A DNA stretch of 26,242 nucleotides, taken from positions 1 through 26,242 of IMG/VR virus record IMGVR_UViG_3300044580_000530. The stretch is one strand, 5' to 3'. Source of the DNA: a virus. Taxonomy: Duplodnaviria > Caudoviricetes. Of this stretch, positions 2,083-20,512 are shown piece after piece; the stretch's first letter is position 1, and each line of letters begins with the position of its first letter. Both the position numbers and the translations under genes were made by a program. Under the pieces are notes generated by a model that saw only the letters and a program-made list of their open reading frames with translations, did not search any database and was not told the DNA's origin.

Positions 2083-2892
2083 ATGTCCACATTGAATCAG
2101 ATTCATCACGGGCGGAGGCACACGCCGCCGCGGCTCCTGGTCTACGGGACCGAGGGCATCGGCAAATCGACGCTGGCGGCAGCAGCGCCGAAACCGATCT
2201 TCATTCAGACCGAGGACGGGCTCGACCAGATCGCGTGCGCCAGCTTCCCGCTGGCGACGCGTATGACGGAGGTCGACGCGGCGCTGCGCGCGCTGATCCA
2301 GGAGAAGCACGAGTTCGAGACGGTGGTGATCGACTCGGCTGACTGGCTGGAGCGACTCGTCTGGGACGCGCTGTGCGAGCAGTACGGCGTGGGCAGCATC
2401 GAGAAAGTGGACGGCGGGTACGGCAAGGGCTACGTCCACGCGCTGACGTTTTGGCGGAGGCTGCTGGGCGACCTCAACACGCTGCGCAACCAGCGCGGCA
2501 TGTGCGTGATCCTGCTGGCGCACGCGCGGGTGGAGAAGTTTGAAGACCCGGAGGCGAGCGCCTACGACCGCTACTCGCCGCGCCTGCACAAGCACGTGAC
2601 CGCACTGCTGACCGAGTGGGCGGACGCGGTGCTCTTCGCCACGCGACGGATCATCACCAAGACCGAGGAGGGAGGGTTCGGGCGCGAGCGCACCATCGCC
2701 GCCGGTCTCGGCAAGGATGGCGGCGAGCGCATCCTGCGCACGGTCGGGAGCCCGGCCTGCGTGGCGAAGAACCGTTACGGCCTGCCCGCCGAGCTACCAC
2801 TTTCTTGGCCCGCGCTGATGCAGGCGCTGGCCGCCAATCTGCCCGCCGACGGTTCGGCGGGGAGAACCGAGTCCAAAACCAACACCAAATAG
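2083..2892 (+). CDS. AAA_24 / Sak4-like phage ATPase (recombinase)
   Basis: Walker A YGTEGIGKST, Walker B VVIDSAD, VILLAH, C-terminal AKNRYGLP. AAGGAG RBS. Confidence 0.85.
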   Translation: MSTLNQIHHGRRHTPPRLLVYGTEGIGKSTLAAAAPKPIFIQTEDGLDQIACASFPLATRMTEVDAALRALIQEKHEFETVVIDSADWLERLVWDALCEQYGVGSIEKVDGGYGKGYVHALTFWRRLLGDLNTLRNQRGMCVILLAHARVEKFEDPEASAYDRYSPRLHKHVTALLTEWADAVLFATRRIITKTEEGGFGRERTIAAGLGKDGGERILRTVGSPACVAKNRYGLPAELPLSWPALMQALAANLPADGSAGRTESKTNTK

Positions 2893-2902
2893 GAGAAAGA
2901 CC

Positions 2903-3358
2903 ATGGCGAACCTGAATGGATTCAACGCGAACGAAGTCGAGCCGACCGGCAACTTTGAGCCGATTCCGGCGGGCAAGTACCAGGCGGCGATCACGGAGAG
3001 CGAGATGAAGCCGACGAAGAACGGGAGCGGCAGCTACCTGCAGCTCACGTTCACGATCACCGACGGCCCGTACAAGAACCGCGTACTGTGGGCGCGGCTG
3101 AACCTCCAAAACCCGAACGCCACGGCGGTGAAGATCGCGCAGTCGGAGTTGTCGGCCGTCTGCCACGCCGTGGGCGTGATGCAGCCGCGCGACAGTGTGG
3201 AACTGCACAACATCCCGCTGGTGATCGTCGTGAAGCTGCGCAAGCGCGAAGACTCGGGCGAGCTGACGAACGAGATCAAGGGTTACGAACGGAAGGCGGC
3301 CGCCGGGCAGGCGCAGTCGGCCCCGGCGACTGACAACACGCCGCCGTGGAGAAGGTAG
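2903..3358 (+). CDS. DUF669 family SSB-like protein
   Basis: FEPIPAGKY..I, LQLTFTI..G.YKNR, NEIKGY and a PPW tail, in the usual position after Sak4. Confidence 0.8.
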   Translation: MANLNGFNANEVEPTGNFEPIPAGKYQAAITESEMKPTKNGSGSYLQLTFTITDGPYKNRVLWARLNLQNPNATAVKIAQSELSAVCHAVGVMQPRDSVELHNIPLVIVVKLRKREDSGELTNEIKGYERKAAAGQAQSAPATDNTPPWRR

Positions 3359-5047
3359 ATGGAACTGCGCCCCTACCAGAAAGAGGCGGTGGCCGCTGTC
3401 TACGATCATCTGCGCCGTCGGGATGACAACCCCTGCGTTGTCATTCCGACGGCGGGCGGCAAGACGCCTGTGATGGCGACGATCTGTCGCGACGCTGTCC
3501 AGCAGTGGAACGGGCGCGTGATGATCCTGGCGCACGTCAAGGAGTTGCTCGAACAGTCGGTCGAGAAGCTGCACGCGATGGCCCCGGATCTGTGGAACCG
3601 GATCGGGGTCTACTCGGCAGGGCTCAAGAGCCGCGACACGGATCACCCGATCATCGTGGCGGGCATCCAGAGCGTCTTCCGTCGCGCGGCGGAGTTGGAC
3701 CGGTTCGACCTGATCTTGATTGACGAGGCGCACATGCTGCCTCCCGACGGCGAGGGCATGTACCGCACGTTTCTGGCCGAAGCCCGCGCGGTGAACCCCA
3801 ACGTGCGGCTTGTCGGGCTGACGGCCACGCCCTACCGCATGAGCACGGGGTTGATCTGCGGGCCGGACAACCTGCTCAACCATGTGTGCTACGAGGTCGG
3901 GGTGCGCGAACTGATGGCGCAAGGCTACCTGTGTCCGCTCAAGACCAAGGCGGGGCGGCGCAAGGCCGACACGGCGGGGCTACATCTGCGGGGCGGCGAG
4001 TTCATCGCGGGCGAGGTCGAGAGCCTGATGGATGACGATGAACTTGTGCGGTCGGCCTGCGGCGAGATCGCCGAGCACGCTCGCGACCGGCACTCGGTGT
4101 TGATCTTCGCGGCCGGAGTGCAGCACGCGCTGCATGTGCGGCGCGTGCTGGGCGAGGCGGGGCTGACGTGCGGTTTCGTCTGCGGCGACACGTCGCCGGG
4201 CGAGCGCGCCGAAACGCTCAAGCGGTTCAAGGAGGGCGCGCTCCGGTGCCTCGTCAACGTCAACGTGCTGACCACGGGGTTTGACGCGCCGAACATCGAT
4301 TGCGTGGCGCTGCTGCGGCCGACTAACTCGCCGGGGCTCTACTACCAGATGGTGGGCCGGGGTTTCAGGCTGGATCCGTCCAAGGAGAACTGCCTGGTGC
4401 TGGACTTCGGCGGCAACATCCTGCGTCACGGGCCGGTGGACGCGCTTGAGATCAAGGAGCGTGCTTCGGGCGGCGGCGGTGAGGCTCCGGCCAAGGAGTG
4501 CCCACAGTGCCAGGCGGTGATCCACGCGGCCTACGGCGTGTGCCCGGAGTGCGGCTATGAATTCCCGCAGCCCCAGCGCGAACAGCATGAGCGCGAAGCG
4601 TCCACGGCGAGTGTGCTGTCCGGCGAGGTCACGGAGACCGAGCACGAGGTGACGGGCGTCTATTACGGCGTGCATGTCAAGCGCGATGCTCCCGAGGGGC
4701 ATCCGCCCACGATGCGGGTCGACTACCGGGTGGGGTTTCACGCTTACAAGAGCGAGTGGGTCTGCTTCGAGCACAGCGGCTATGCTCGCGGCAAGGCTGT
4801 GGCGTGGTGGCAGGCGCGTTCGCGCGAGCCTTTCCCCAAGAGTTGCGAAGAGGCCGTACGGATCTGCGAGGCGGGCGGCGTGGCCGAGCCGGTATCGATC
4901 ACCGTGCGGTCGGTGTCGGGCGAGAAGTACGACCGCATCACGAAGCACAAACTGGGCTTGATCCCGCCGCGCCTGGACGGAAGCGACGAAGTCGATGACG
5001 GCACGCTGCCGGAATACAAGGGAGCTGATGATGACCTGCCCTTCTGA
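3359..5047 (+). CDS. SF2 DEAH helicase with Zn ribbon (RadD-like)
   Basis: LRPYQ, PTAGGKT, IDEAH, GLTATP, LTTGFDAP, QMVGRGFR, CPQC..CPEC. Confidence 0.92.
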   Translation: MELRPYQKEAVAAVYDHLRRRDDNPCVVIPTAGGKTPVMATICRDAVQQWNGRVMILAHVKELLEQSVEKLHAMAPDLWNRIGVYSAGLKSRDTDHPIIVAGIQSVFRRAAELDRFDLILIDEAHMLPPDGEGMYRTFLAEARAVNPNVRLVGLTATPYRMSTGLICGPDNLLNHVCYEVGVRELMAQGYLCPLKTKAGRRKADTAGLHLRGGEFIAGEVESLMDDDELVRSACGEIAEHARDRHSVLIFAAGVQHALHVRRVLGEAGLTCGFVCGDTSPGERAETLKRFKEGALRCLVNVNVLTTGFDAPNIDCVALLRPTNSPGLYYQMVGRGFRLDPSKENCLVLDFGGNILRHGPVDALEIKERASGGGGEAPAKECPQCQAVIHAAYGVCPECGYEFPQPQREQHEREASTASVLSGEVTETEHEVTGVYYGVHVKRDAPEGHPPTMRVDYRVGFHAYKSEWVCFEHSGYARGKAVAWWQARSREPFPKSCEEAVRICEAGGVAEPVSITVRSVSGEKYDRITKHKLGLIPPRLDGSDEVDDGTLPEYKGADDDLPF

Positions 5048-7334
5048 CAAACATGCGGGCGCGGAGCTGCTTGACATGGCGGCCGGTTATCTGGCCGCCG
5101 GGTTGTGCGTGTTGCCCGCCAAGCGGGCCGAGAAGCGCCCGACGGTCGGACAGTGGAAACGCTATCGTGAGCGCCTGCCTACGGAGGCGGAGTTGTCGGC
5201 GTGGTTCGCCAACGGGCCCGACGCGGTGTGCATCGTGTGCGGGGCGGTGTCGGGTCATGCGGAGATGATCGACTTCGACGCGGGCGGTGAGTTGTTTGAG
5301 GCGTGGTCAGGGCGCATCGCGCCCGAGTTGATGGCGCGGCTGGCGGTCGAGACGACCCAGCGCGGCGGGCGGCACGTGTTCTACCGGTGCGAAGCGCCGG
5401 TGTGCGGCAACATGAAGCTGGCGCAGCGCCGCACGGGGGACAAGACCGTGACGCTGATCGAGACGCGCGGCGAAGGCGGGCTGTTCCTCTGCACGCCGAC
5501 GGCCGGGTATGAGGCGGTGCAGGGCGATTTAAAGTCCCCTCCCCTGCTGACCGAGGCGGAGCGGGACGCGCTGCTGGCAGCCGCGTGGGAGCTGAACGAG
5601 TACGTGCCGGAGCCGGTCGGCGAGACTCGGCGCACGGAAGGCAGACAGGCGGTTACGCCTGTGCCGCAGGGCATGGTGCAGGGCGAGCGGCCCGGCGATG
5701 ATTTCAATGCGCGCGGGGACGTGCGCGCGGTTCTCGAGCGGGCCGGATGGGCGCGGGTGCGCGAGGGCGAGAACGAGTATTGGCGGCGGCCCGGCAAGAT
5801 TTCGGGGTGGTCGGCCACGCTGAAGGCGCGCGTGTTCTACGTGTTCAGCGCCAACGCCGCGCCGTTCGAGGCGAACCGGGCTTATGCGCCGTTCACGGTG
5901 TACACGCTGCTGACGCACGGCGGAGACTTCGAGCGGGCGGCCTGCGAGTTGCGGCGCGAGGGCTTCGGCGACGCGGGGCCCAGCATGGGCGGCGCTGACA
6001 TTTCGGCGCTGGTGGCGGCATGCCGACCGCCTGCGGCGGCGCGCGCACCCGAGGTGCCGGATCCCGGCCCGATGCCCGACGGGCTGTTGCGCATGCCGGG
6101 GTTCGTGGGCGAGGTGATGGATTACTGTCTGGCCACGGCCCCCTATCCGAACCCCGTCATGGCCTTCGCGGGGGCGCTCGCGCTGCAGGCGTTTCTGGCC
6201 GGGCGCAAGGTGCGCGACTCCGGCGACAACCGCACGAACCTGTATCTGCTCGGGCTGGCGCACTCGGCGGCGGGCAAGGACTGGCCGCGCAAGGTCAACA
6301 CGCGGATCATGCACGAGGTCGGGCTTGCGGGCTGCCTCGGCGAACGCTTCGCCAGCGGCGAAGGCATTCAGGATGCGCTCTTGCAGACGCCCGGCATGCT
6401 GTTCCAGACGGACGAGATCGACGGCATGCTGCAGTCGATCAACAAGGCCAAGGACGCGCGTTACGAGGCGGTCATGTCCACACTGCTGACGATGTTCTCG
6501 TCGTCCAACAGCGTGTTCCCCGTGCGCCGCAAGGCCGGCAAAGAGGCACCCGGTGTGATCAACCAGCCCAATCTGGTGGTCTTCGGCACGGCAATCCCGA
6601 ACCACTATTACGAAGCGCTCTCCGAGCGGATGCTCACCAACGGCTTCTTCGCCCGCATGATCATTTTGGAGGCCGGGCCGCGCGGCACGGGACAGGAGCC
6701 GGTGATCCGGGATCTGCCGCCGGGCGTTCTGGCCTCAGCCAAGTGGTGGGCGGACTTTCGACCGGGCACCGGCAACCTGGAGAACTGGAACCCCGTGCCC
6801 GTGGTGATCGAGCACACGGACGAGGCCAGGCGGCTTCTCGTCGAGACCCGCGAGCGGGCCGAGGCCGAATACACCGCCGCCGAGGGCAAGGGCGATTCGG
6901 TCGGGACTACGGTCTGGGGGCGCGTGAGCGAGCAGGTGCGCAAGTTGGCGCTGCTGTACGCGGTCAGCGAGAACCACCTGACGCCGCGCATCGGCCTCGC
7001 CGCCGTCGAGTGGGCGTCGGCGTTCGTGATGCACCAGACGCGGCGGATGCTCTTTATGGCGGCGGGACACGTCGCCGAAAACCCGTTCCATGCGGAGTGC
7101 CTCAAGGCGGTGGAGAAACTGCGCAACGTGCCGGGGAACGAGCTGCCGCACAGCGTGCTGCTCAAGCGCATGAAGCTGGACTCGAAGAGTTTCGCCATGC
7201 TGGTGGAGACGCTGGAGCAACAGGGCGATATCGAGGTCATAACCACGGCTAGACCGGGCTGGCATGTGCGCTCATACCGTCTGGCGGGCGGGGTGAAGCA
7301 TGAGGGTGAAACATCGGCGGGAGGTGAAACATGA
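5028..7334 (+). CDS. Bifunctional primase/polymerase (PrimPol) fused to a DUF3987-like helicase domain
   Basis: N-terminal PrimPol motifs IDFD, TTQRGGRHVFY, IETRGEGG. C-terminal AHSAAGKD (Walker A-like), FQTDEID, NGFFAR. Start (5028/5031) overlaps the helicase end. Confidence 0.85.
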   Translation: MMTCPSDKHAGAELLDMAAGYLAAGLCVLPAKRAEKRPTVGQWKRYRERLPTEAELSAWFANGPDAVCIVCGAVSGHAEMIDFDAGGELFEAWSGRIAPELMARLAVETTQRGGRHVFYRCEAPVCGNMKLAQRRTGDKTVTLIETRGEGGLFLCTPTAGYEAVQGDLKSPPLLTEAERDALLAAAWELNEYVPEPVGETRRTEGRQAVTPVPQGMVQGERPGDDFNARGDVRAVLERAGWARVREGENEYWRRPGKISGWSATLKARVFYVFSANAAPFEANRAYAPFTVYTLLTHGGDFERAACELRREGFGDAGPSMGGADISALVAACRPPAAARAPEVPDPGPMPDGLLRMPGFVGEVMDYCLATAPYPNPVMAFAGALALQAFLAGRKVRDSGDNRTNLYLLGLAHSAAGKDWPRKVNTRIMHEVGLAGCLGERFASGEGIQDALLQTPGMLFQTDEIDGMLQSINKAKDARYEAVMSTLLTMFSSSNSVFPVRRKAGKEAPGVINQPNLVVFGTAIPNHYYEALSERMLTNGFFARMIILEAGPRGTGQEPVIRDLPPGVLASAKWWADFRPGTGNLENWNPVPVVIEHTDEARRLLVETRERAEAEYTAAEGKGDSVGTTVWGRVSEQVRKLALLYAVSENHLTPRIGLAAVEWASAFVMHQTRRMLFMAAGHVAENPFHAECLKAVEKLRNVPGNELPHSVLLKRMKLDSKSFAMLVETLEQQGDIEVITTARPGWHVRSYRLAGGVKHEGETSAGGET

Positions 7335-9158: not shown

Positions 9159-9584
9159 TCAGGCGAGAAGCTCGCCGATGGGCTTGGGCGTCGTGAAGTA
9201 AAGATCCAGCTCGGCGCCGTTCTCGAGTAGCTCGGGGATTGAAATGTAACCGAGTTCGGCACCCATGCCGAGGTCGGCGATTCCGAAGGCCTGCACCTGG
9301 CCCGCGTGGTCGGGGTCGGCGTCTTTCTCAACGATCCACCAGTCGCAACCGCCGATGAAGTAGTGAAGCCGGGCGAGGGCGGTGCGGCCTTGGGCGTCGG
9401 TCTCGTAGGTCTTGGGCATGGCCTGCCATGTGGCGTGTATGCGGTCGATGACCTCAATGAAGTGGTCGCCTTCCTCGCCCATCATGCCGTCAATGATCGC
9501 CTCGTACTGTGCGGGCGGGGTTAGCATTTTGAGGATGTCGAGTTCGTGGGGCTTTTCGGGTGGCGTGTAGCGTTTGCGTTTCAT
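9159..9584 (-). CDS. DUF2958-like protein
   Basis: HYFIGGCDWWIVEKD..QAFGIADLG..ELGYISIPEL..ELDLYF. AAAGG RBS. Confidence 0.7.
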   Translation of the reverse strand: MKRKRYTPPEKPHELDILKMLTPPAQYEAIIDGMMGEEGDHFIEVIDRIHATWQAMPKTYETDAQGRTALARLHYFIGGCDWWIVEKDADPDHAGQVQAFGIADLGMGAELGYISIPELLENGAELDLYFTTPKPIGELLA

Positions 9585-9635
9585 GGGTGCCTTTCTGCCC
9601 GCATACGATGCCTGCGGGCGGGCGCTGGGGTTGCT

Positions 9636-9893
9636 TCAAGGGTTCAGGCTTGTCCGGAAAAGGTTGGTGTGGCCGTCGGACCACTCCTCCGGATCGTCTT
9701 TGACGGCTTTGTCGAGTTGGTCGCCGACTTTTCCAAGCAGGTGCTTGGCGATGCTGACCGCCTCGCGGGTCTCGGTGCGGTTGGGTCGGCGCTGGTGGGC
9801 GAGCGATAGCACGCGCTCAAGCTGCTGCATGAGGGCCTGCCACGTCTGATGAAACTCGGCACTCTGGCCGACGGGGTTTTGCGTTGCGTTCAT
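9636..9893 (-). CDS. Hypothetical small helical protein
   Basis: AAAGGA RBS, 85 aa, co-oriented between two credible genes. Confidence 0.65.
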   Translation of the reverse strand: MNATQNPVGQSAEFHQTWQALMQQLERVLSLAHQRRPNRTETREAVSIAKHLLGKVGDQLDKAVKDDPEEWSDGHTNLFRTSLNP

Positions 9894-9907
9894 GTTGCGG
9901 GTTCCTT

Positions 9908-10438
9908 TTATTCATGGGGGAAAGAGGCGTCGCCGAAAACAAGGCCGGTGCCGAAACCGAGTGCCTGAAAACAGGCGCGGATGGTGTTTCCGCCGACAAG
10001 GACGTTGTCCACGATGAAAGTCCGGCGGCAGGGAATGGGCTTGCCGGGCTTGCGGGCGATGTTGTGCTCGGCCACGCTGACGGCGGGGCCTTTGGTGCGG
10101 TGGCGGTCGCAGGTGCTCGGCGCGGGCGCGGTGCGGGTCAGGATGTCGTGGACCTCGGCCCCGCCTTTGACGTGGGCGGCGATGGCCTTCGCAAGGCGGC
10201 GGTTGGCGGCGGTGTCGCCGGTGTGGTCGGGCGCGGGGATGAGGTGGCAAGGCCCCCACACAAGCGCGGCCATTTCGGCGGCGGCTATCTGTAGCGCGGC
10301 CTCGGGGCAGTCGGGGTCTTTGAGCATGTAAGACAGGGCGCGGGTCTCGCGCTCGTAATCGCTCAAGGGACGGGTGCGGGGTGAGACATAGCGCCGGGCG
10401 GCGCGGGTGGTGCTGTACGGGTGGCATGTGGTGTTCAT
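9908..10438 (-). CDS. ComF-like phosphoribosyltransferase-fold protein with an atypical PRPP loop
   Basis: GAAAGGA RBS before ATG 10438. LIPAP and IVDNVLVGGNT (cf. VDDVxTTGxT). Confidence 0.65.
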   Translation of the reverse strand: MNTTCHPYSTTRAARRYVSPRTRPLSDYERETRALSYMLKDPDCPEAALQIAAAEMAALVWGPCHLIPAPDHTGDTAANRRLAKAIAAHVKGGAEVHDILTRTAPAPSTCDRHRTKGPAVSVAEHNIARKPGKPIPCRRTFIVDNVLVGGNTIRACFQALGFGTGLVFGDASFPHE

Positions 10439-10564
10439 GGTGTGTGTCCTTTCTGCGTGGCCTTGCCGGTGTCTCTCACACCCAACGAGGTGTGACAAAA
10501 CGTCTGCTCTGACTGAGCCGGAATCCTCACTAGCGGCACCCGCCGCCGTGGACGCCGAACTCAA

Positions 10565-10708
10565 ACCGGCCCTGCTCTGCAATCTGTAAAGTGACTGATT
10601 CATAACGCTGCCCTTCCTTTCGCCATCATCCTCGCCTGTGTCTTCGCGATGATGGCGAACAGGGAGGGCAAGGGCGTTATCAGCCACTGAGATTGCAGAC
10701 AGGACGGT
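10565..10708. other. ~145 nt imperfect hairpin
   Basis: Nested paired segments: ACCG/CGGT, CCTG/CAGG, TCTGCAATCT/AGATTGCAGA, ATAACGC/GCGTTAT, TGCCCTTCCT/AGGGAGGGCA, TTCGCCATCATC/GATGATGGCGAA. Confidence 0.85.
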
Positions 10709-11310
10709 GAGGGCGCGGACGGAACCTGGGGCACAGGGAAGCGGACGGGAAGGAGGCACGGATGACCGGACGCCTGCCACGTAGCCGCACCGTCGGCAAC
10801 GGGCATGACAAAGGCGGTAGCCCGCCGGCGCGAGTAACCGAAGCGTTGGCGTGACCGTGTGCAACGGCGCGGCGTCGGGTTCCGGAAGCGGCATGAGTGG
10901 CGGCAACGGCGGTGTATCGTGCCGGCCTTGGATTGGGTGGGATTGGGAAGGAACAGCCCAAGCCATGCCCCGCAGGGCTGCCGCGCAGCGGAACCCCGCG
11001 TGCAGGGAACGCGGGTGAGGTTGTACAGCCGCCAACATTAGCGGCGTGTGTCCTTTCACCGAGTGAGCGGCCTTCGCCCCCGTAAGCGACACTTGCGGGA
11101 GGGATGCGGACTAGCCCGCTCGTGGCGCGTCGGGGCGCGAATGCGCGAGGGAGGATCTCCGCGCTTAAATGGCGCGGCAGCTTACCTTGTCGTTGGCCGG
11201 GCGCGGAGTGGCGGCAGCCGGAAAGACGGCGGTCGTGCGGGCTGGGGTGTGTATCCACGCGCAAAGACCGCGCTCCGTCGTCCCGGCTGCCACCGCCCGC
11301 GCCCGGCGTC

Positions 11311-12614
11311 GTGGCAGGCGCTCTGACGCAGGCGGCGGCTGCCACACTGGGGATTGAAAAACGGCGGCGGGCGCGGCGGAATCCGAAACGGCTTGCCGCT
11401 CGGTCGCTTGCGACTTTCGGAGTGCCGACGCGCCTTCCGCCGTGATGCCGCTGCGGCAAACGCCGGCGGTGACCGTACGGCACGGCGACGGCTGTCGCTC
11501 GGGCGCTGGGTCTTATCTTCCCGAAACGCCCGTGCGGCAAGCCGTCGCCGTACCGTATGGCTGCGAAGCAGCGCCGCGCGTGATAGCCCGTGTCCATGCC
11601 CCGTGGCGGGCGCTCGACGCGAATCGGCGGCGGCTGCCACACTGGGTAGATGGGAAACGGCGGCGTGCGCACAGGCACGCAAGGAGCCTGCGACGCGGCG
11701 ACCGGTGCGCTGGCCGACGAAACGCCACTGCGGTAAGCGAGCGGCGGAGACCGTACCGGTCCGGATGCAACGCCGTGCTGACCCATGCGTGAAGCTTGCG
11801 GAGCGCTGGGTCAGTCGCGGCGGCGGCAAGGCCTGCCACACGGGCGCTCTTGAGTATCAGCCCGCAACGCCGTGTGGCAGGCCGGTGCCGGAGCCGGTAT
11901 GGCGTGCGCAGCACGCGCCGCGAGCGTGAGCGCGCAGCACTGTTCGTGGCAGCCGTTGCGGCTGCCGCACTGGGGACATGAAAAGCGGCGGCGGGCCTGC
12001 CACATCGACACCGCAACAAGCTTGCGCAGTGAGGATGGCGTGTGGCAGGCCTTCCGCCGTGATGCCGATGCGTAACGCCCGCCGGTGACCGTACCGAAGA
12101 GCAACGACGGTGATGCCTGGAGGTAACGCAGGCGGTCCTGTAGTCAGGCCGACTGCGTGGACGTAAGGCGTTCACCGGAAGGTGCGATGCAGGTATGGCT
12201 GCAAAGCAGCGGCGGAAGCGTGGAGCCCGTGGCCGTGTGTCTTGTGGCAGGCGCTCGCCGCGGAGCGGCGGCGGCTGCCACACTTGGGATATGAAGTGAG
12301 GCGGCGAGCGCGACCGGCACGCAAGGAGCCTGCGACGCGGCGGCCGGTGCGCTGGCCGACGAAACGCCACTGCGGTAAGCGAGCGGCGGAGACCGTACCG
12401 GTCAGGATGACGGGCGGCTGCCACAAAGCGTAGCGACTGGCACCGCCCGTCAAGGCCTGCCACACGTGCGCTAGGGATTATCATCCGCTCAACGCCGTGT
12501 GGCAGGCCGGTTCCTGAGCCGGTATGGCGTGCGAAGCACGCGCCGCGAGTGTGAGCCCGTGGACGTGTCGTGTGGCAGCCGTCGACGCGCAGCGGCGCGG
12601 CTGCCACAGGTGGG
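11311..12614 (+). repeat. Tandem array of four ~300-340 nt structured units (A-B-A-B); candidate ncRNA/ssDNA element
   Basis: Five boundary hairpins GTGGCRG..CTGCCRCA..TGGG at 11311, 11603, 11946, 12244 and 12572. GACCGTAC at 11471, 11749, 12087 and 12391. GTATGGC at 11555, 11897, 12193 and 12522. 11674-11767 matches 12316-12409 with 2 mismatches. Confidence 0.85.
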
Positions 12615-13190
12615 TAAGCCCGCGAAAACCGCGCAGGAGGCAGGAAGACGGGCGTGCGAGTCGCGCGAGCCGCCCGGATGACTGCCGGATGCGCGGTGCC
12701 CGGAACCTGGAGCCCGAACGCAGCCCGAAGGGTGCCGCCGGGCTTAGGCGGCACCCGCTCCCCCCAGAACAGCCGCCGTCTTCAGAATAGGCGGCTGTCG
12801 AGCCCCCGGAAAGCCAGCCTTATGAGGGGGGTTCGCGGGGGTTCGGGGGCGGCGGGGGGAGCGGGCTGTCGGACGGGCGATCAGGGCATCCGGGCGCGGG
12901 CGCGAGGGGTTCGGGGAAACCTCCCCGAGCCACTGCGTAGCGAGGAACGAGCGAAGCTGAGCATGGGAACGCACTGACCGTATCCGGGCATGTGCGGAAG
13001 AAAAGGCCCCGGTGCGCGAACGAGGGGACGGCGCCGGCACCCCCGGAAGCTCGGCGGTACTCCGCCGAGATCGCCGGGAGGTGCCAGAGCCGCCGAGGAG
13101 ACAGCGTATCCGCTGGCTCTGAGGTCGCCCCGAGGCTCGCGCTGGGGCCGCTGGAGTGAGGGCGTGCTGACGAGGCCGAAGCCGCAGGCA

Positions 13191-13790
13191 GCCCGCTATC
13201 CTGCGGGCTGCCCGCCGCTATCCGCGGCGAAGTGCGGCGAGGCAGAGGAAGCATGCCCGAACGTGTCAAGGGGGTTTGGGGGGATGTGCCCCCCTAGCCT
13301 ACCGTCTTGCGACGAGGGGGAAGCCAAGCTGCCCACCTCCGCCCGCTATCTGCGGGCGTGGGCAGCGCAGGCTAGCCGGGGGACCCGGCCATCTCCGCCG
13401 CTATCCTGCGGCGTGGCCCGCCGCTGGCAGCGCCGCGCCCTGCCGACCAGCGAAGCGGGAGGCAGGGCTGTCTCCGGCGGTGCAGGCGGGCCGGCTGGGG
13501 CGGCGGCCCCCGAGGAGCTCTTGCTGGCCAGCGGCGATGACGCGGGAACACAACGGTCGTGCGGGCAAAGAGGCCTGCTTGCCCCGCGCTATCCCGCGCG
13601 GGGTGCAGGCCGATGCAGGGGCGCAGTGTCCGCCGCTATCCTGCGGCGTGCGCCCCGGTCGGGACGGGTTCTTGCGCCGCAGGCCTTCGGGCGAAGCCCG
13701 ATTGAGGTGCCGTGTCCCCCGCCGCTATCCTGCGGCGGCGGCACCGGTGCGAGGGAGCCGCCCCCTTCTCCGGCCGCTATCCTGCGGCCG
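13191..13790. repeat. Eight mini-hairpins with conserved loop TATCCT (AGGATA on the minus strand)
   Basis: CGC-TATC(C)(T/C)-GCG cores at about 13193, 13215, 13343, 13398, 13585, 13633, 13722 and 13774, each within a perfect 6-8 bp GC stem. Confidence 0.85.
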
Positions 13791-13861
13791 TGGGGGCGGC
13801 GACCGAGGTTGGGGTGTGTTCGATTTGTTGAAATCTCGCCTTTTGTGAGGAGGTGTTTGTT

Positions 13862-14164
13862 ATGGCTTTGTTCGAAAAAGGTATTTCGGGTAATCCCGCC
13901 GGTCGGCCGAAGGGTCTGCTGACCGGTCGCGCTAAGGCTTTGTATGCGCTGGATCAGGTCGTCAGCAAGGAAGAGAACATCGAGTTGATCGAGTCCGCGC
14001 TGGAAAAGACGTTGAAGGAGAAACCCATGTGGTTCTTCATCAACGTCATCATGCCTCTGCTGCCCAAAGAGACCAAGGGTGTGTTGGAGACTGGCGACAG
14101 GGTGATCGAGTGGAAGAGCCTGGTGTCTGTCTCCAAGGAAGTCATCCGGGCCAGCGAGGGTTAG
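13862..14164 (+). CDS. terS: Terminase small subunit (DUF5681-like)
   Basis: AGGAGG RBS, FEKGISGNPAGRPKG motif, immediately upstream of terL. Confidence 0.75.
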   Translation: MALFEKGISGNPAGRPKGLLTGRAKALYALDQVVSKEENIELIESALEKTLKEKPMWFFINVIMPLLPKETKGVLETGDRVIEWKSLVSVSKEVIRASEG

Positions 14165-14167
14165 GCC

Positions 14168-15472
14168 GTGCTGTACAGACCGCATCTTGCGCAGGCGAAG
14201 ATCCATGACGCCCGCGACGCCCGGTTCCGGACTGTGTGCACCGGTCGGCGTTTCGGCAAGACCATGTGTATGGCCGCCGAGATATTGGACCGGGGCGGCA
14301 GAGAAGTCGGCGGCGACTACGGCTGGGTCGCGCCGACGTACGGGGTCGCCGAAAGAGGAGTCGAAGCTTTCAAATCGATCGCACCCGGTTTTGTGAGGGT
14401 TGTCGGAAGGATGCCGACGAGGGTTGAGTTCGAGGGGCTTGTCGGTCCCTGCCGCGTCTTCATGCTCTCTGCCGACAATCCTGACAGCATCCGCGGCTTC
14501 GGTTTTCGGGGCATCGTGGTGGATGAGGCGGCAGCCGTCCCAGTGGATGTGTGGAACTACGTGCTTCGCCCCACTCTCGCCCAGACGCTCGGCTGGGGGG
14601 TGTTCATCTCCACGCCCGCCGGACGCAACTGGTTCTACGACATGTTCACGCGCGGCGTCGAGCGGCAGGAAGGGTTCCGGTCGTTCACCTTCCCGTCGAA
14701 TGTGTCCCCATACTTCCCCGCGAAAGAGTGGGAAGAGGCCAAGGCCACCCTGCCCGAAGATGTGTTCCGCCAGGAGTACGAAGCTCAATTCCTTGAAGAT
14801 TCGGCGGGAGTGTTCCGGGGCGTTGATGGATGCCTCATTGAAGTAATAAGTAATAGGGAAGAGGTAATAGGTTCGGGGCCGGTGATTGTGGGGTGTGACA
14901 TCGCCAAGCACACCGACTGGACGGTGCTGATCGCGATGGACGCCAAGACCGGGCTGTGTCTGGAGATGGAGCGTTTCAATCAGCTCGACTGGCCGCTGCA
15001 GAAAGAGCGCATCGCTGGGTTTGTGAGGCGGTGGAACGCTCTTCTGGTGATGGACGCGACCGGCGTCGGCGATCCTGTCTATGACGATCTGCGCAGGGTG
15101 CTGCCACGCGTCGAGGGGTTCAAAATCACGGCGCAGGCCAAGCGCGAACTTGTGCAGGGCCTCATGGTGGCCGTCGAGCAGCGCCGTGTGATGTGGCAGG
15201 CGGGGAAATCGGCAATAGGCAATGGGCAATCAGCAATAGGCAGCGGACCTTGGGAGGTGCTGACGGCGGAGATGAAGCGGTATGAGTATGATATCGGCCC
15301 GACTGGGCAAATCTCTTACGCCGCGCCGTCCGGGTATCACGATGACTGCGTGATGGCGTTGTCGCTCGGCGTGTGGGGCTGCCACACGTTCGGAGTGGAG
15401 CCGGGAAGGATGTTGAGGCTGGTGGATAGTCAACGTTTGGCTGCTTCAAACAAGGTGTTGACTCTTGTCTAG
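14168..15472 (+). CDS. terL: Terminase large subunit
   Basis: Walker A GRRFGKT, Walker B IVVDEAA, ISTP, FRQEYEA, and nuclease motifs GCDIA, DATGVG, HDDCVMAL. Confidence 0.93.
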   Translation: MLYRPHLAQAKIHDARDARFRTVCTGRRFGKTMCMAAEILDRGGREVGGDYGWVAPTYGVAERGVEAFKSIAPGFVRVVGRMPTRVEFEGLVGPCRVFMLSADNPDSIRGFGFRGIVVDEAAAVPVDVWNYVLRPTLAQTLGWGVFISTPAGRNWFYDMFTRGVERQEGFRSFTFPSNVSPYFPAKEWEEAKATLPEDVFRQEYEAQFLEDSAGVFRGVDGCLIEVISNREEVIGSGPVIVGCDIAKHTDWTVLIAMDAKTGLCLEMERFNQLDWPLQKERIAGFVRRWNALLVMDATGVGDPVYDDLRRVLPRVEGFKITAQAKRELVQGLMVAVEQRRVMWQAGKSAIGNGQSAIGSGPWEVLTAEMKRYEYDIGPTGQISYAAPSGYHDDCVMALSLGVWGCHTFGVEPGRMLRLVDSQRLAASNKVLTLV

Positions 15473-15515: not shown

Positions 15516-16058
15516 TCAGTCATTTGATCGCTTTTCAATCCAGACCTTCTTTCCCTTCTTAAGATTGATCAGGTATTGCTCATTCGCAAAAATGAGGACG
15601 GGATAGGGCGGCAACCAGTACCCCGTATCATAGCGGTCATATTGTGGAATTGACCAGAGACTTCCATCATTTGTCTTCAATATTGCACCGTCACCCATCT
15701 TTTCGATTACATTCCCAAGAAATCCATTTTGAAGAAAAAATGTTCCGTCCACCCTTTTGACATTCACCGTATTCCCTGAGTAGATCAAAACGCCTACCGT
15801 CGGCAGTGCGTTTACATATTCGTCGATCTTTTCTTTGTTAAATATAGGCGCAGGCCCGTCGCAGATGAGGAAACCTTCGCTGAGAGGTAAAGCAACAATC
15901 TCTCGTTCCATTATCCAGGTAGAGCCTGTTAGGAACTTTATTACTTTCCCGTCGATCTCTGTGACCATGTCACTGGCGAACGAGACTTTCTTTAGCTGAG
16001 CGGCGCAAACTGAAATGCTCGTCAAGAATAGAAGTGAGATTGTTGTGAAATACTTCAT
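15516..16058 (-). CDS. Hypothetical secreted protein (moron, probable gene cassette)
   Basis: AAGGA RBS, signal peptide MKYFTTISLLFLTSISVCAA, low GC, opposite strand to the phage genes. Confidence 0.75.
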   Translation of the reverse strand: MKYFTTISLLFLTSISVCAAQLKKVSFASDMVTEIDGKVIKFLTGSTWIMEREIVALPLSEGFLICDGPAPIFNKEKIDEYVNALPTVGVLIYSGNTVNVKRVDGTFFLQNGFLGNVIEKMGDGAILKTNDGSLWSIPQYDRYDTGYWLPPYPVLIFANEQYLINLKKGKKVWIEKRSND

Positions 16059-16076
16059 TTGGTTGTTTCCTTGGTG

Positions 16077-16134
16077 GCGCATCGATAGGAGTCAGGCGCG
16101 CGGGTACCGCGTCGCCTGGACTCCCTGGTTGTGC
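16077..16134 (-). mobile_element. Integron attC-like recombination site (58 bp)
   Basis: Minus strand reads R'' GCACAAC, then GGAGTC(C)AGGCG..CGCCTGACTCC stem with one extrahelical C, then R' GATGCGC. It starts 3 nt after the lipoprotein stop. The matching GTTGTGC lies at the cassette 5' end (16468-16462). Confidence 0.75.
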
Positions 16135-17847: not shown

Positions 17848-17983
17848 CCTAGGTTGTTGTCTACCGGACACACGGCAACAGTGCCTCGACATGTGGCGTA
17901 TCCGCGTCTGGCACGAAAGCGGCATTACATTGCGCAGTACTTGTGCAAGCCGGTTTATCTGTTTCCTGTGCTTCTAAACAATG

Positions 17984-18850
17984 TTACGGTGTCTTACTGG
18001 CTGCAATTGTGAACAGAGTTTTCTTGGAGATTTTTGCCTCCAATTGCTTAACAATCTCCATATACCCGACTTTTGCGTCAGCCTTCAGATTAAGACATTT
18101 GGCAATCCCGCTTGCATCCGTACTAAGCCGACTCCGCAAATCGAGTCTTTGTAGTTTTCCATCATTTGCGACAAGAGAATAAGCATGAATATGCATCGAG
18201 TCGCCAAGCCTTGCGGGCACAAAGTGCTTGAAATTAAACTCATTTTTCAGATAGTCAAGAAGTACGTCCTGAATCACAAGAACGAGATGTTTATTAATAG
18301 CATCGAAAGTCTCTATCTTGTGATGTAATTGCACGAGAATCGTTTTGGCTGACATCTTCCAGTTCATGCCAAGCGACTTGTCGCTTTTGCCGGCCACACA
18401 CGCGACTTTAACTGAATTCAGAAATTTTTGTCGCTCAGGCCAGACGGTGCCAGTTGTGTCCAGAGTTTGAAGCTCAACACCAACGAAATCCAGAACCTTT
18501 CCAGATCTCACTGATGCAATGAAATAATCAACGCTTCCGCCTGGGATTGAAACCTCCGGAATGACATGGAGTTCATTGCCAGGCTGGTGGTTTGTCAATA
18601 AATGAAGGCAGTCCATAAAAATTTGGCCTCGCTCGATGAGGCGATGTGGACAAATGATAATATGATTATTTTTCTTCCCATAGACAACAGTACATGTACC
18701 AATTGCAACGTCCGGCTCGCTTTTTCTGACCTTGACACACATCTTGTCAAGAAACGGACAGTGTTGAGCCTGAACGATCTTGTTCCAAACTGTTGATTTG
18801 TTGGCAGTGGGCGTCCCAAAGAGTTCAACTATACTACTCATCCGACCCAT
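17984..18850 (-). CDS. NotI-family type II restriction endonuclease
   Basis: Cys4 cluster CPF..C.K..GTC..ICPHR, SVDYF..GVELQT catalytic region, MNW..QLHHK. Low GC, downstream of an MTase. Confidence 0.8.
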   Translation of the reverse strand: MGRMSSIVELFGTPTANKSTVWNKIVQAQHCPFLDKMCVKVRKSEPDVAIGTCTVVYGKKNNHIIICPHRLIERGQIFMDCLHLLTNHQPGNELHVIPEVSIPGGSVDYFIASVRSGKVLDFVGVELQTLDTTGTVWPERQKFLNSVKVACVAGKSDKSLGMNWKMSAKTILVQLHHKIETFDAINKHLVLVIQDVLLDYLKNEFNFKHFVPARLGDSMHIHAYSLVANDGKLQRLDLRSRLSTDASGIAKCLNLKADAKVGYMEIVKQLEAKISKKTLFTIAASKTP

Positions 18851-18854
18851 CCTT

Positions 18855-20165
18855 TCATGATAAGGGTTTCTTACAATGCCGCCCCTTCCAAGAAACTACT
18901 AGCTGTGAGACTTTACGGTTCTCGTACCCGCTTTCTTTTGCCGCAACAATGTCATGACCTACCAATGATTCATCTCTCTTGATTATATCGGCAAACTGGC
19001 ATGGTGCAGGTAACTTGAACAAACTCCGAATGTGTTGTCCAATCGCTCTTGCTAAGAGAGGGGGGACAGCGTTTCCGACCATGCGATTGCCATGCCACTT
19101 GACAGGATGAAAAAAGAACCAGTCAGGAAAACTTTGAATTCGAGCACATTCTCGAGTTGTCAGAACACGATTCTGATAAGGATGCAATGGACGCGGAGCA
19201 GACCATGAACCGCGAGCTTTTGTTGTTCCGGCTCGGATTGTTGTCGAGATGTCTTCCGGGTCAAGCCTTCTAATCCCACATGTCCCGTCCGATTCACCAA
19301 ACCCAAGTTTGGCGAATCGTCTCGCAAGAGACTTGCCGTGTTGGGTGCGCCTCAAATTCGTACATATGTTCTCGTCCCATTCAACAATTGGGCCAAAGTC
19401 GTTTGGATCCTGTTTGCATCTTCGCATAAAACGCTGAAAATCGTTACGCGGTTGTTCCGTATAAATTACTCTATCGCCGCTAATCAACTCCGCAAAACTG
19501 TCAACATCTGGAATATCCGATATTGCATCCCAACTTGAGGGACACCTCTTTGTGAACAACGTAGGCATATCTGTTGGTCTGAAGTGTGTTGCCTCTGGCA
19601 GCGATGGGGAAATCTTAAGTGCTTTTTGAATCCCAAGAATGAAGACGCGTTGGCGCATTTGCGGAACGCCATACTCCCAAGCCCTTAGAGTCTGCGGTCC
19701 GACAAAATCATATTTTTTGCCTAAGAGCTTCAGTGCCGACCCAAGCATAGGTGAATCGCTTGTCTTCAACCCCGGAACGTTCTCCATTAGGAATACCAGT
19801 GGATTGAACTCTGTCACAACACGCGCAAATTCCAGAACCAACTCATTCAACGGGTCATCATTCCGCCTCTTACCAGCCAATGAGAATCCCTGACACGGAG
19901 GACCTCCAACGACCGCAAACACTTGTCCCGTGGAGAAACCAAGGTTTGTGAAAGACTCACGCGTCAGTTTCCGAACATCTCCCAACTTCTCGCCATATAA
20001 TACCTTCGAGTGAGGAAAATTGTATTGCGCATAACGTCCCGCAATTTCTTCAATCTCAACATTTACGGCAACATTGAAACCGGCTTGATCGAACCCCAGA
20101 CTTAACCCACCAACCCCAGAGTAGAGGTCAACCACCATTGGCCTATTTGAATCTACCCGTTCCAT
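18855..20165 (-). CDS. DNA (cytosine-5)-methyltransferase
   Basis: Motif I DLYSGVGG, IV GGPPCQGFS, VI ENV, VIII QMRQRVF, IX RECARIQSFPD, X GNAVPP. Start is uncertain (20165 or 20138). Confidence 0.93.
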   Translation of the reverse strand: MERVDSNRPMVVDLYSGVGGLSLGFDQAGFNVAVNVEIEEIAGRYAQYNFPHSKVLYGEKLGDVRKLTRESFTNLGFSTGQVFAVVGGPPCQGFSLAGKRRNDDPLNELVLEFARVVTEFNPLVFLMENVPGLKTSDSPMLGSALKLLGKKYDFVGPQTLRAWEYGVPQMRQRVFILGIQKALKISPSLPEATHFRPTDMPTLFTKRCPSSWDAISDIPDVDSFAELISGDRVIYTEQPRNDFQRFMRRCKQDPNDFGPIVEWDENICTNLRRTQHGKSLARRFAKLGFGESDGTCGIRRLDPEDISTTIRAGTTKARGSWSAPRPLHPYQNRVLTTRECARIQSFPDWFFFHPVKWHGNRMVGNAVPPLLARAIGQHIRSLFKLPAPCQFADIIKRDESLVGHDIVAAKESGYENRKVSQLVVSWKGRHCKKPLS

Positions 20166-20512
20166 TGTCGTCTTTTGCGTTCCTTTCAAATGACATGATA
20201 CCAGAATGGCGTTTTCTTTTGAAAGCAACAAAACACTTTCAGCAACGGGGGGTGGGGAAGACCTCACCTAATGCCACCCAACTTTTTAGAGATGGGTAAG
20301 GTATCCCCTGTCTCCCGTCTTGGGACGATTATTGACTCTTCCGAAAGTTGATTCAACGCCCTCTGTTGGAGGGTTCGAACGATGGGCGACGGACGCTCCG
20401 GCCTGCGGGTGTCGCGCACGAGCTTTTTTGCGGGCGGTGCCCGCCGCCGGAATACGTCTGAAAAATCAAAGTGCGCATGACCCGCAGGCGCTTCGCTTTT
20501 TGGAGGGGTGGG

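Follow-up and report, generated by a model that had tools for sequence, protein, structure and literature searches.

Single-strand origins (sso), which consist of hairpins, bring the RNA polymerase or primase of the host to a displaced strand (excerpts of PMC8860593). Mini-hairpins with GNA or GNNA loops occur in the priming sites of G4 and St-1, in ssiA of RSF1010 and in the N4 promoters, and they bind SSB poorly and resist nucleases (excerpts of PMC13037366). The Frpo and ssi sequences of the F and ColIb-P9 leading regions are made of repeated GC-rich units and follow a strand logic of their own (excerpts of PMC11541004 and PMC9849209). On the non-template strand, the ops and opsX elements of RfaH and UpxY carry GCG-N-AGC mini-hairpins; a long hairpin precedes these, and a long operon lies downstream. 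Integron attC sites are strand-biased folded DNA hairpins that lie between shuffled units. The core of attC has the consensus RYYYAAC...GTTRRRY.

The stretch of DNA analysed here (26,242 nucleotides, called the window) contains, beside the terminase genes of a tailed temperate phage, a tandem array of non-coding units of 260-310 nt each, which is a real, selected and undescribed structure outside each of the named families that were tested, and which is probably DNA. The first-pass annotation had recognised no family in it, and this is borne out by the Rfam covariance models, which gave only chance hairpin matches far below the gathering score for the window and three sub-regions. No description of such an array was found in the literature that was searched, which lies mostly outside the subscription journals.

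The strand-specific hairpins with DNA mini-hairpins by which sso and ssi signals are recognised are found in the array, and its likeness to sso, G4, St-1 and RSF1010 ssiA extends to non-coding DNA of 200-300 nt that is dense in hairpins and has GNA/GNNA mini-hairpins, for which the would-be target is an RNA polymerase or a primase encoded by the host or the element. It differs from them in its tandem branched units with three-way junctions, present in up to six copies, and in its position in a tailed temperate phage beside the terminase; no RS_B-like site was identified, and no HUH Rep or relaxase was seen among the 29 window ORFs scanned, in a record that is about 52% complete. The known signals of the ssi and Frpo type consist of one to three mostly unbranched hairpins, in contrast to up to six branched units in the arrays. 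Those of the sso type are built like the other two (excerpts of PMC8860593).

With the Frpo and ssi sequences the array shares repeated GC-rich units and, in the first of two prophage families only, the arrangement of strands, the folded strand being the template of leftward accessory genes (DUF2958, RadC-like). Unlike Frpo, it has neither an AT-rich UP loop nor outward-facing -35/-10 hexamers: the sole hexamer pair, CTGCCR-16 nt-TATC in 44 of 67 units, points into the loop and thus faces the wrong way for a working Frpo promoter. The Frpo regions of F and ColIb-P9 are not GNA-rich, profile matches to their repeats reached only E 0.8 or worse with local scores within those of shuffles, and the best match in a search of plasmids had an E value of 0.4. 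Compared with attC, the boundary hairpins lack the RYYYAAC/GTTRRRY core, the units carry no genes and shuffling also takes place inside them. Two further candidates were rejected: REP/REPIN elements with a RAYT, as there are no scattered chromosomal copies and none flanking a Y1 transposase, and a retron or RT-associated array, as RVT_1 was found in none of 3 proviruses and in neither of 2 host genomes, each of these being incomplete.

The array and its surroundings

The window is an entire provirus record with a completeness of about 52%. According to Pfam, the genes to the left of the array serve recombination and replication (DUF3799 exonuclease, AAA_24, DUF669, helicase and primase-polymerase), and those to the right are the small and large terminase genes (13853-15472, plus strand; DUF5681 and Terminase_6N/6C), followed by a Mu-like portal and protease. 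Relatives of the terminase are mostly labelled Kiritimatiellia, Lentisphaerae or Verrucomicrobia, which makes these the likely host group. A leftward accessory operon (9159-10438, minus strand) encodes DUF2958, an 85-aa ORF and a phosphoribosyltransferase-like ORF, and in relatives it also contains a RadC/JAB gene; Pfam supports no gene in the 3.4 kb between this operon and the small terminase at 13853. The G-richness of the plus strand extends beneath the leftward genes as well (skew +0.16). A low-GC cassette with a NotI-family endonuclease and a C5 methyltransferase (17984-20267) lies between the portal and protease genes, and a search of the window for tRNA and tmRNA genes found none.

The array is one portion of a 2.9 kb non-coding structured block (10960-13830) directly upstream of the terminase genes. 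The block begins with a segment that travels with the array (10960-11196, plus strand), with two c(GCA)g hairpins at 10972 and 10985, and continues with a long hairpin (11197-11306, plus strand) that has a CTGCCAC:GTGGCAG-type duplex and TATC at its apex and that sits between units in some homologues. On the 3' side of the array follow a hairpin-dense, G-rich conserved segment (12612-13180, plus strand) and eight TATC-loop hairpins (13180-13830, plus strand; at 13197, 13219, 13347, 13402, 13590, 13637, 13726 and 13778), the stems of which covary among homologues. Within the block TATC occurs at hairpin apices 16 times on the plus strand and twice on the minus strand, and the CTGCCAC:GTGGCAG duplex motif reaches 22 copies in 1.4 kb against 41 in 23 kb elsewhere. 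A conserved leader with a long hairpin (10430-10950, hairpin at about 10570-10715) is a separate module that travels with the leftward operon and not with the array. The left arm of this hairpin is invariant and the right arm varies with compensating changes; the module also holds two TGACAA sites, which we take to resemble the c4-type antisense control of P4/P1, and an Rfam scan of it gave no match.

Five boundary hairpins enclosing four units had been reported from a first look at the letters, and they are present: the 5' arms (GTGGCRG) start at 11311, 11603, 11946, 12244 and 12572 and the 3' arms (CTGCCRCA) at 11339, 11634, 11962, 12275 and 12601, with start-to-start spacings of 295, 328, 313 and 326. 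The hairpins span 11311-11345 (GTGGCAG...CTGCCAC), 11603-11640, 11946-11968 (a short form), 12244-12281 (cap c(GGA)g) and 12572-12607 (cap c(GCA)g), all on the plus strand, as are the units. Unit 1 (11339-11598, type a1) comprises a purine linker, P2, a small P3 and a three-way junction P4-GTGA-P5-P6, with the GTGA at 11469, TATC at the P5 apex (11514) and the P6 loop c(GAA)g. Unit 2 (11634-11942, type b) has the junction GAGA at 11747, a branched P5 with TATC at 11855 and the P6 loop c(GCA)g; unit 3 (11962-12237, type a2) has a P4 with a swapped C-G pair, the junction GTGA at 12085, a different P5 and the P6 loop c(AAA)g; and unit 4 (12275-12567, again type b) has GAGA at 12389, TATC at 12479 and the P6 loop c(GAA)g. 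The common scaffold order ascribed to the units can be followed in each of them, and so can the four mini-hairpins (11560, 11902, 12198 and 12527) and the compensatory change from TCCGG/CCGGA to TCAGG/CCTGA. The A-B-A-B alternation proposed at the same time holds for units 2 and 4, which are 82% identical, and fails for units 1 and 3, which are only 66% identical, with cross pairs at 61-64%; the order in the window is a1-b-a2-b. As a general order strict alternation is incidental, for homologues show many other orders and single-type tandem runs.

Fold, strand and loop classes

In the general unit a purine linker is followed by P2, a stem that is long and variable, and by P3, a hairpin of three pairs; P4, an unpaired GNGA, P5 and the hairpin P6 then form a three-way junction. 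P5 begins as CCGTAC:GTATGG with an invariant G-T pair and continues in a variable arm of 76-140 nt. Unit 1 folds better than all 200 of its shuffles (z -5.6, 0/200). The plus strand, which had been proposed as the folded one, is the more stable of the two in 66 of the 67 distinct units with RNA energies and in 63 with DNA energies, and the stem cells hold 106 G-T against 13 A-C pairs. In an alignment of 36 of the 67 units, chosen by hand, 93.2% of cells pair against 86.9% in shuffles (0/500), and 10 of 38 pairs show changes on both sides, a number reached by 23 of 500 shuffles; one P6 column is inflated by a misaligned short form, and slid-alignment controls pair at 28-47%. As the structure was drawn from these same, related sequences, such statistics are support and not a p-value. 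RNAalifold, unaided, recovers P2, P4 and P5, and together with the pairing counts it supports the covariation among units and homologues that had been suggested as a check. The closing stem P1 is doubtful, because it shows no two-sided change and overlaps with the boundary hairpin, and one of its pairs is broken in 8 of 36 rows.

A non-coding reading requires that no coding signature be present, and none was seen. The lengths of the units fall in all three phases (16/29/22), no frame stays open across the 67 units, stops occurring in 27-60 of them per frame, and the long ORFs that overlap the array have no Pfam match; on the same three grounds a protein-coding repeat was rejected. The lack of a coding signature and the covariation uphold the earlier view of a selected, multi-copy, non-coding structure on the plus strand.

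Watson-Crick hairpins are strand-symmetric, so that comparing the loops on the two strands is a fair test. In the region 10590-13850, c(GNA)g hairpins with three or more Watson-Crick pairs number 12 on the plus strand and 0 on the minus strand (shuffle mean 2.4; 0/300 shuffles reach 12), and the coding flanks have 5/6 and 2/4. On stems of at least three pairs the RNA-type loops stay at chance level, with 3 GNRA against 3.2 and 1 UNCG against 0.5 expected from shuffles; two-pair stems give a weak RNA-type signal (UNCG 5 against 1.9, and GNRA in the array 8 against 4.3, each 15/300). The plus/minus counts of c(GNA)g are 12/0, 6/0, 9/0, 14/1 and 13/2 in five close relatives, and 9/0, 15/2, 7/0 and 8/0 in the second prophage family, with 2/1 in a 632-nt fragment. 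The P6 loops of the 67 distinct units, whose letters were left free by the search pattern, comprise 25 cGNAg, 30 cGNABg, 1 cGNYAg, 2 GNRA, 2 AAA and 7 others, which places 56 of 67 in DNA-stable, non-GNRA classes; as the units are related these counts are not independent, and there are 16 distinct P6 loops, of which 10 belong to DNA-only classes and 1 to GNRA. Furthermore, GC-GNA-GC caps 29 of 67 boundary hairpins with all four N in use (GAA, GTA, GCA and GGA), the g(CNNG)c motif is present in 65 of 67 P2 domains, and the side branch of P5 exchanges GNA, GNNA and g(CNNG)c caps.

The GNA-type and related loops observed here are stable loop classes of DNA (excerpts of PMC3201870), and GNA mini-hairpins melt at 70-76 C as DNA and at 39 C in the RNA analogue r(GCGAAAGC) (excerpts of PMC13037366). 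Loop usage that is rich in GNA and enriched in neither GNRA nor UNCG favours DNA over RNA, and we consider it likely that the folded molecule is single-stranded DNA. Between the two options that the first-pass annotation had offered, an array of single-stranded DNA signals thus gains from the loops and a processed non-coding RNA loses.

Nine runs recorded as RNA contain 20-47% of the sampled words. In four of them the summed contig depth over 9170-13943 is higher than in most flanking bins (28-136 against 0.4-14 in run X8), in runs that were picked for containing the array and with a rise that spans the leftward genes as well, and within the non-coding block each of the four has its lowest depth in the bin 11340-11773. 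Contigs of RNA libraries alone carry neither strand nor ends nor level, and they therefore indicate at most that the region may be transcribed. The lack of RNA cover at 15680-16113 and 17850-20000 means only that the cargo genes of this strain are absent from those runs.

Homologous arrays in two prophage families

Searches with three profile HMMs of conserved segments found homologous arrays of 1-6 units in 46 loci besides the window, many of them cut by contig ends; the count was taken after dropping 20 loci that repeat the same contigs, and some of the remainder may be one strain in different samples. The parse gave 67 distinct full units. A first pattern scan had given 15 loci, 12 of these by chance. 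Of the 54 loci from a metagenome scan with the junction hairpin, 33 contain segments of the array and 21 are chance or bare junction matches; nine short-stem viral matches have no junction. Three viral contigs with a terminase identity of 81-82% have arrays in other orders, and some elements contain degenerate copies. P2, the orientation of P4 and P5 each exist in two to five types that occur in many combinations, which means that shuffling occurs inside the units and would fit homologous recombination at the conserved core.

Among 40 terminase loci with upstream DNA, the unit core is present in 6 of the 7 at 80% identity or above, the window included, and in none of the 33 at 48-72%, so that the array is accessory. 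BLAST of the array against 401 genomes of the host class gave matches in two, which speaks either for a narrow range or for its being missing from assemblies. In many arrays a spacer module of 200-360 nt (a G-run hairpin, then a T-rich tract) follows a2 units, for instance at L001 7733-8061 and in 20 further inter-unit gaps; the window has none. Bare or diverged three-way-junction cores, which represent the minimal conserved unit, occur in L035, L039, L056 and L151, and the P5 stems of the first three are short (20-32 nt).

The arrays are carried by two prophage families. Family 1, like the window, has a Mu-like head and a primase-polymerase. In family 2 the portal is of the SU10 type, the capsid and the large packaging ORF are different ones, and DnaB and an integrase are encoded. 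Carriers of family 2, in the host genome G003 and in metagenome contigs, have the same block preceding their packaging genes. In them the 10430-10950 leader goes with the leftward operon and 10960-13830 with the packaging genes, the two being separated by 6-7 kb, from which it follows that the array belongs to the packaging end; the folded strand is the template of the adjacent leftward genes in family 1, and those genes are 6-7 kb away in family 2. The orientation of the array is identical in every locus that shows a packaging gene or TATC hairpins. As the two families share neither terminase nor replication genes, we infer that a host factor is a likelier protein partner than the terminase or primase of a phage. 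The array is on seven contigs of G003 (C1, C25, C29, C45, C46, C62 and C78), which span both prophage families and apparently decayed elements. The first-pass annotation, correct as to the array, missed the larger block at 10960-13830, its TATC hairpins and the linkage to packaging genes in two families.

Possible roles of the folded strand

The element would most likely act like a single-strand initiation signal, every step after folding being our inference. Tentatively, we regard the array as a candidate multi-copy platform that might recruit a host priming factor to a displaced strand. The top strand would be exposed as the lagging template of a rightward or rolling-circle fork or, alternatively, by resection of a genome end near the packaging start. 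The GNA-capped hairpins would fold faster than SSB can coat the strand; host RNA polymerase, DnaG or PriA would then bind to the conserved junction, to the CTGCCAC duplex with its repeats and to the loops with TATC, and priming on the array would restore duplex DNA for concatemer production. The G-richness of the plus strand across leftward genes is what is expected of an exposed lagging template, though G skew can have other causes. Against such a platform, family 1 encodes its own primase-polymerase.

The same DNA-type loops would also serve a folded decoy for a host DNA-sensing or repair protein, or an end protector that stalls nucleases near the packaging start. This is fairly unlikely, even though titration would fit a copy number that is high and varies (1-6), the duplex motif is dense, the place beside the packaging genes is fixed, mini-hairpins are nuclease-resistant (excerpts of PMC13037366) and some defence systems respond to DNA hairpins (excerpts of bioRxiv 2022.11.18.517080). 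The four virus records that were checked are proviruses, whose genome ends are uninformative, and Chi-like enrichment of the motif across genomes is absent, with counts against control of 22/20, 18/15, 16/19 and 32/16, and 48/13 in the genome with seven arrays. A selfish or neutral repeat of the REPIN or MITE kind, amplified in a tolerant spacer, is highly improbable. It would account for the variable copy number, the shuffling and the degenerate copies, the boundary hairpins begin with GTGG and the hosts encode Y1 HUH transposase-like genes; against this, all units seen lie in elements derived from prophages and share one position and one orientation there, seven Y1_Tnp loci are flanked by neither the motif nor any match to the block, and compensatory changes have been kept.

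Two readings place the fold in RNA, in whole or in part. A tandem series of structured non-coding RNAs, released from a rightward transcript by cleavage at the boundary hairpins, is an unlikely explanation. Multi-way junctions in which unpaired residues are conserved are a typical trait of RNA, the stems contain G-U type wobbles, and RNA runs contain part of the sampled words, four of these runs with greater depth over 9170-13943 than over most flanks. The order of domains and the length echo the raiA motif RNA (RF03072), with its closing stem, optional P2, small P3 with AU/AAA-like flanks, P4 and three-way junction, a likeness drawn from the published description (excerpts of PMC12968392). 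Yet the loops are of the DNA type, and there is neither an Rfam nor a raiA match: the RF03072 model gave none at E 10, and a separate search for raiA copies to serve as a positive control found them in 0/41 genomes. P6 follows P5 directly in all 67 units, without the P5-P6 linker of raiA, in a parse that allowed no more than 3 nt ahead of the P6 TRC; pseudoknots of the PK1/PK2 type are unsupported, as the P3 loop varies freely and has no consistent partner; the closing stem is poorly supported, never changing on both sides; and raiA is a single host gene, as opposed to a tandem array in a phage. The bin 11340-11773, furthermore, is the one with the lowest RNA depth in the block.

RNA-type stems and DNA-type loops would both be covered by a co-transcriptional pause or antitermination array for the late operon, similar to ops/opsX and loading NusG paralogues, with the long stems in nascent RNA and the GNA mini-hairpins in non-template DNA. 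For the terminase operon the plus strand is the non-template strand and at the same time corresponds to the nascent RNA, and GCG-AGC hairpins are found on it upstream of that operon: GCG-N1,2-AGC occurs 19 times on the plus and 5 times on the minus strand of the block, against 31 and 35 in the other 22.8 kb. In the opsX sites of Bacteroides, hairpins of the GCG-AGC type form in the non-template strand behind one of RNA (excerpts of PMC11685472); the opsE sequence given there, CTGCGAAGCA, agrees with P6 of unit 1. A NusG paralogue is present in 3 of the 4 host genomes searched; the host genomes L221, L222 and L223 encode a second, RfaH/UpxY-like one. We nevertheless hold this quite unlikely, for the majority of P6 loops read GCAT or GCAC, with GC closing them, and not GCG-AGC, the leaders of two host paralogue genes have no GCG-AGC site within 200 nt of the start, and a NusG gene is absent from the one provirus searched, leaving the phage without a cognate paralogue. 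Moreover, ops sites are single elements of 12-40 nt, in contrast to dozens of hairpins over 2.9 kb, most of them not of ops sequence, and the junction, the g(CNNG)c caps and the TATC hairpins would stay unexplained.

Other non-coding blocks were seen in related and unrelated elements. Relatives with a terminase identity of 62-66% have different, unrelated blocks in the corresponding place (L098 1200-4150, L103 1-1550, L104 1-1000 and L112 1-500), which are GNA-rich on the terminase coding strand (7/0, 9/1, 6/1 and 4/1, respectively). A 1.9 kb non-coding block precedes the small terminase in L123 (7850-9750; from the cultured Pontiella sulfatireligans) and in L137 (8000-9750), with GNA hairpins mostly on the minus strand at its left and on the plus strand at its right. 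The unrelated viral contig L204 has, around 2700-5200, four TATC hairpins of the CCGCTATCCTGCGG type in a long non-coding block that is full of GAGCG-N-AGCGAG repeats; neither an array nor a known terminase was found there.

Such blocks may be a general feature of these phages, with the array as one case. It is conceivable, though somewhat doubtful, that temperate phages of the PVC group encode kilobase-long modular devices of folded DNA, that is, natural multi-junction single-stranded DNA with exchangeable domains that binds host proteins. Once the strand next to the packaging site is exposed, such devices would bind a polymerase, a primosome or a defence sensor. They would be to DNA what the large ornate RNAs are to RNA, and more distant relatives, the Pontiella prophage among them, would have unrelated versions. 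Natural single-stranded DNA structure beyond the hairpin is held to be rare and hard to separate from RNA computationally (excerpts of PMC5737381); here is a covarying multi-junction unit with a clear DNA loop signature that is exchanged between unrelated prophage families. The 67 natural variants are available for structural work, and the strand-resolved loop test is simple and could re-sort orphan "RNA" motifs. For the tailed phages themselves, the array points to an unrecognised single-stranded stage or host target.
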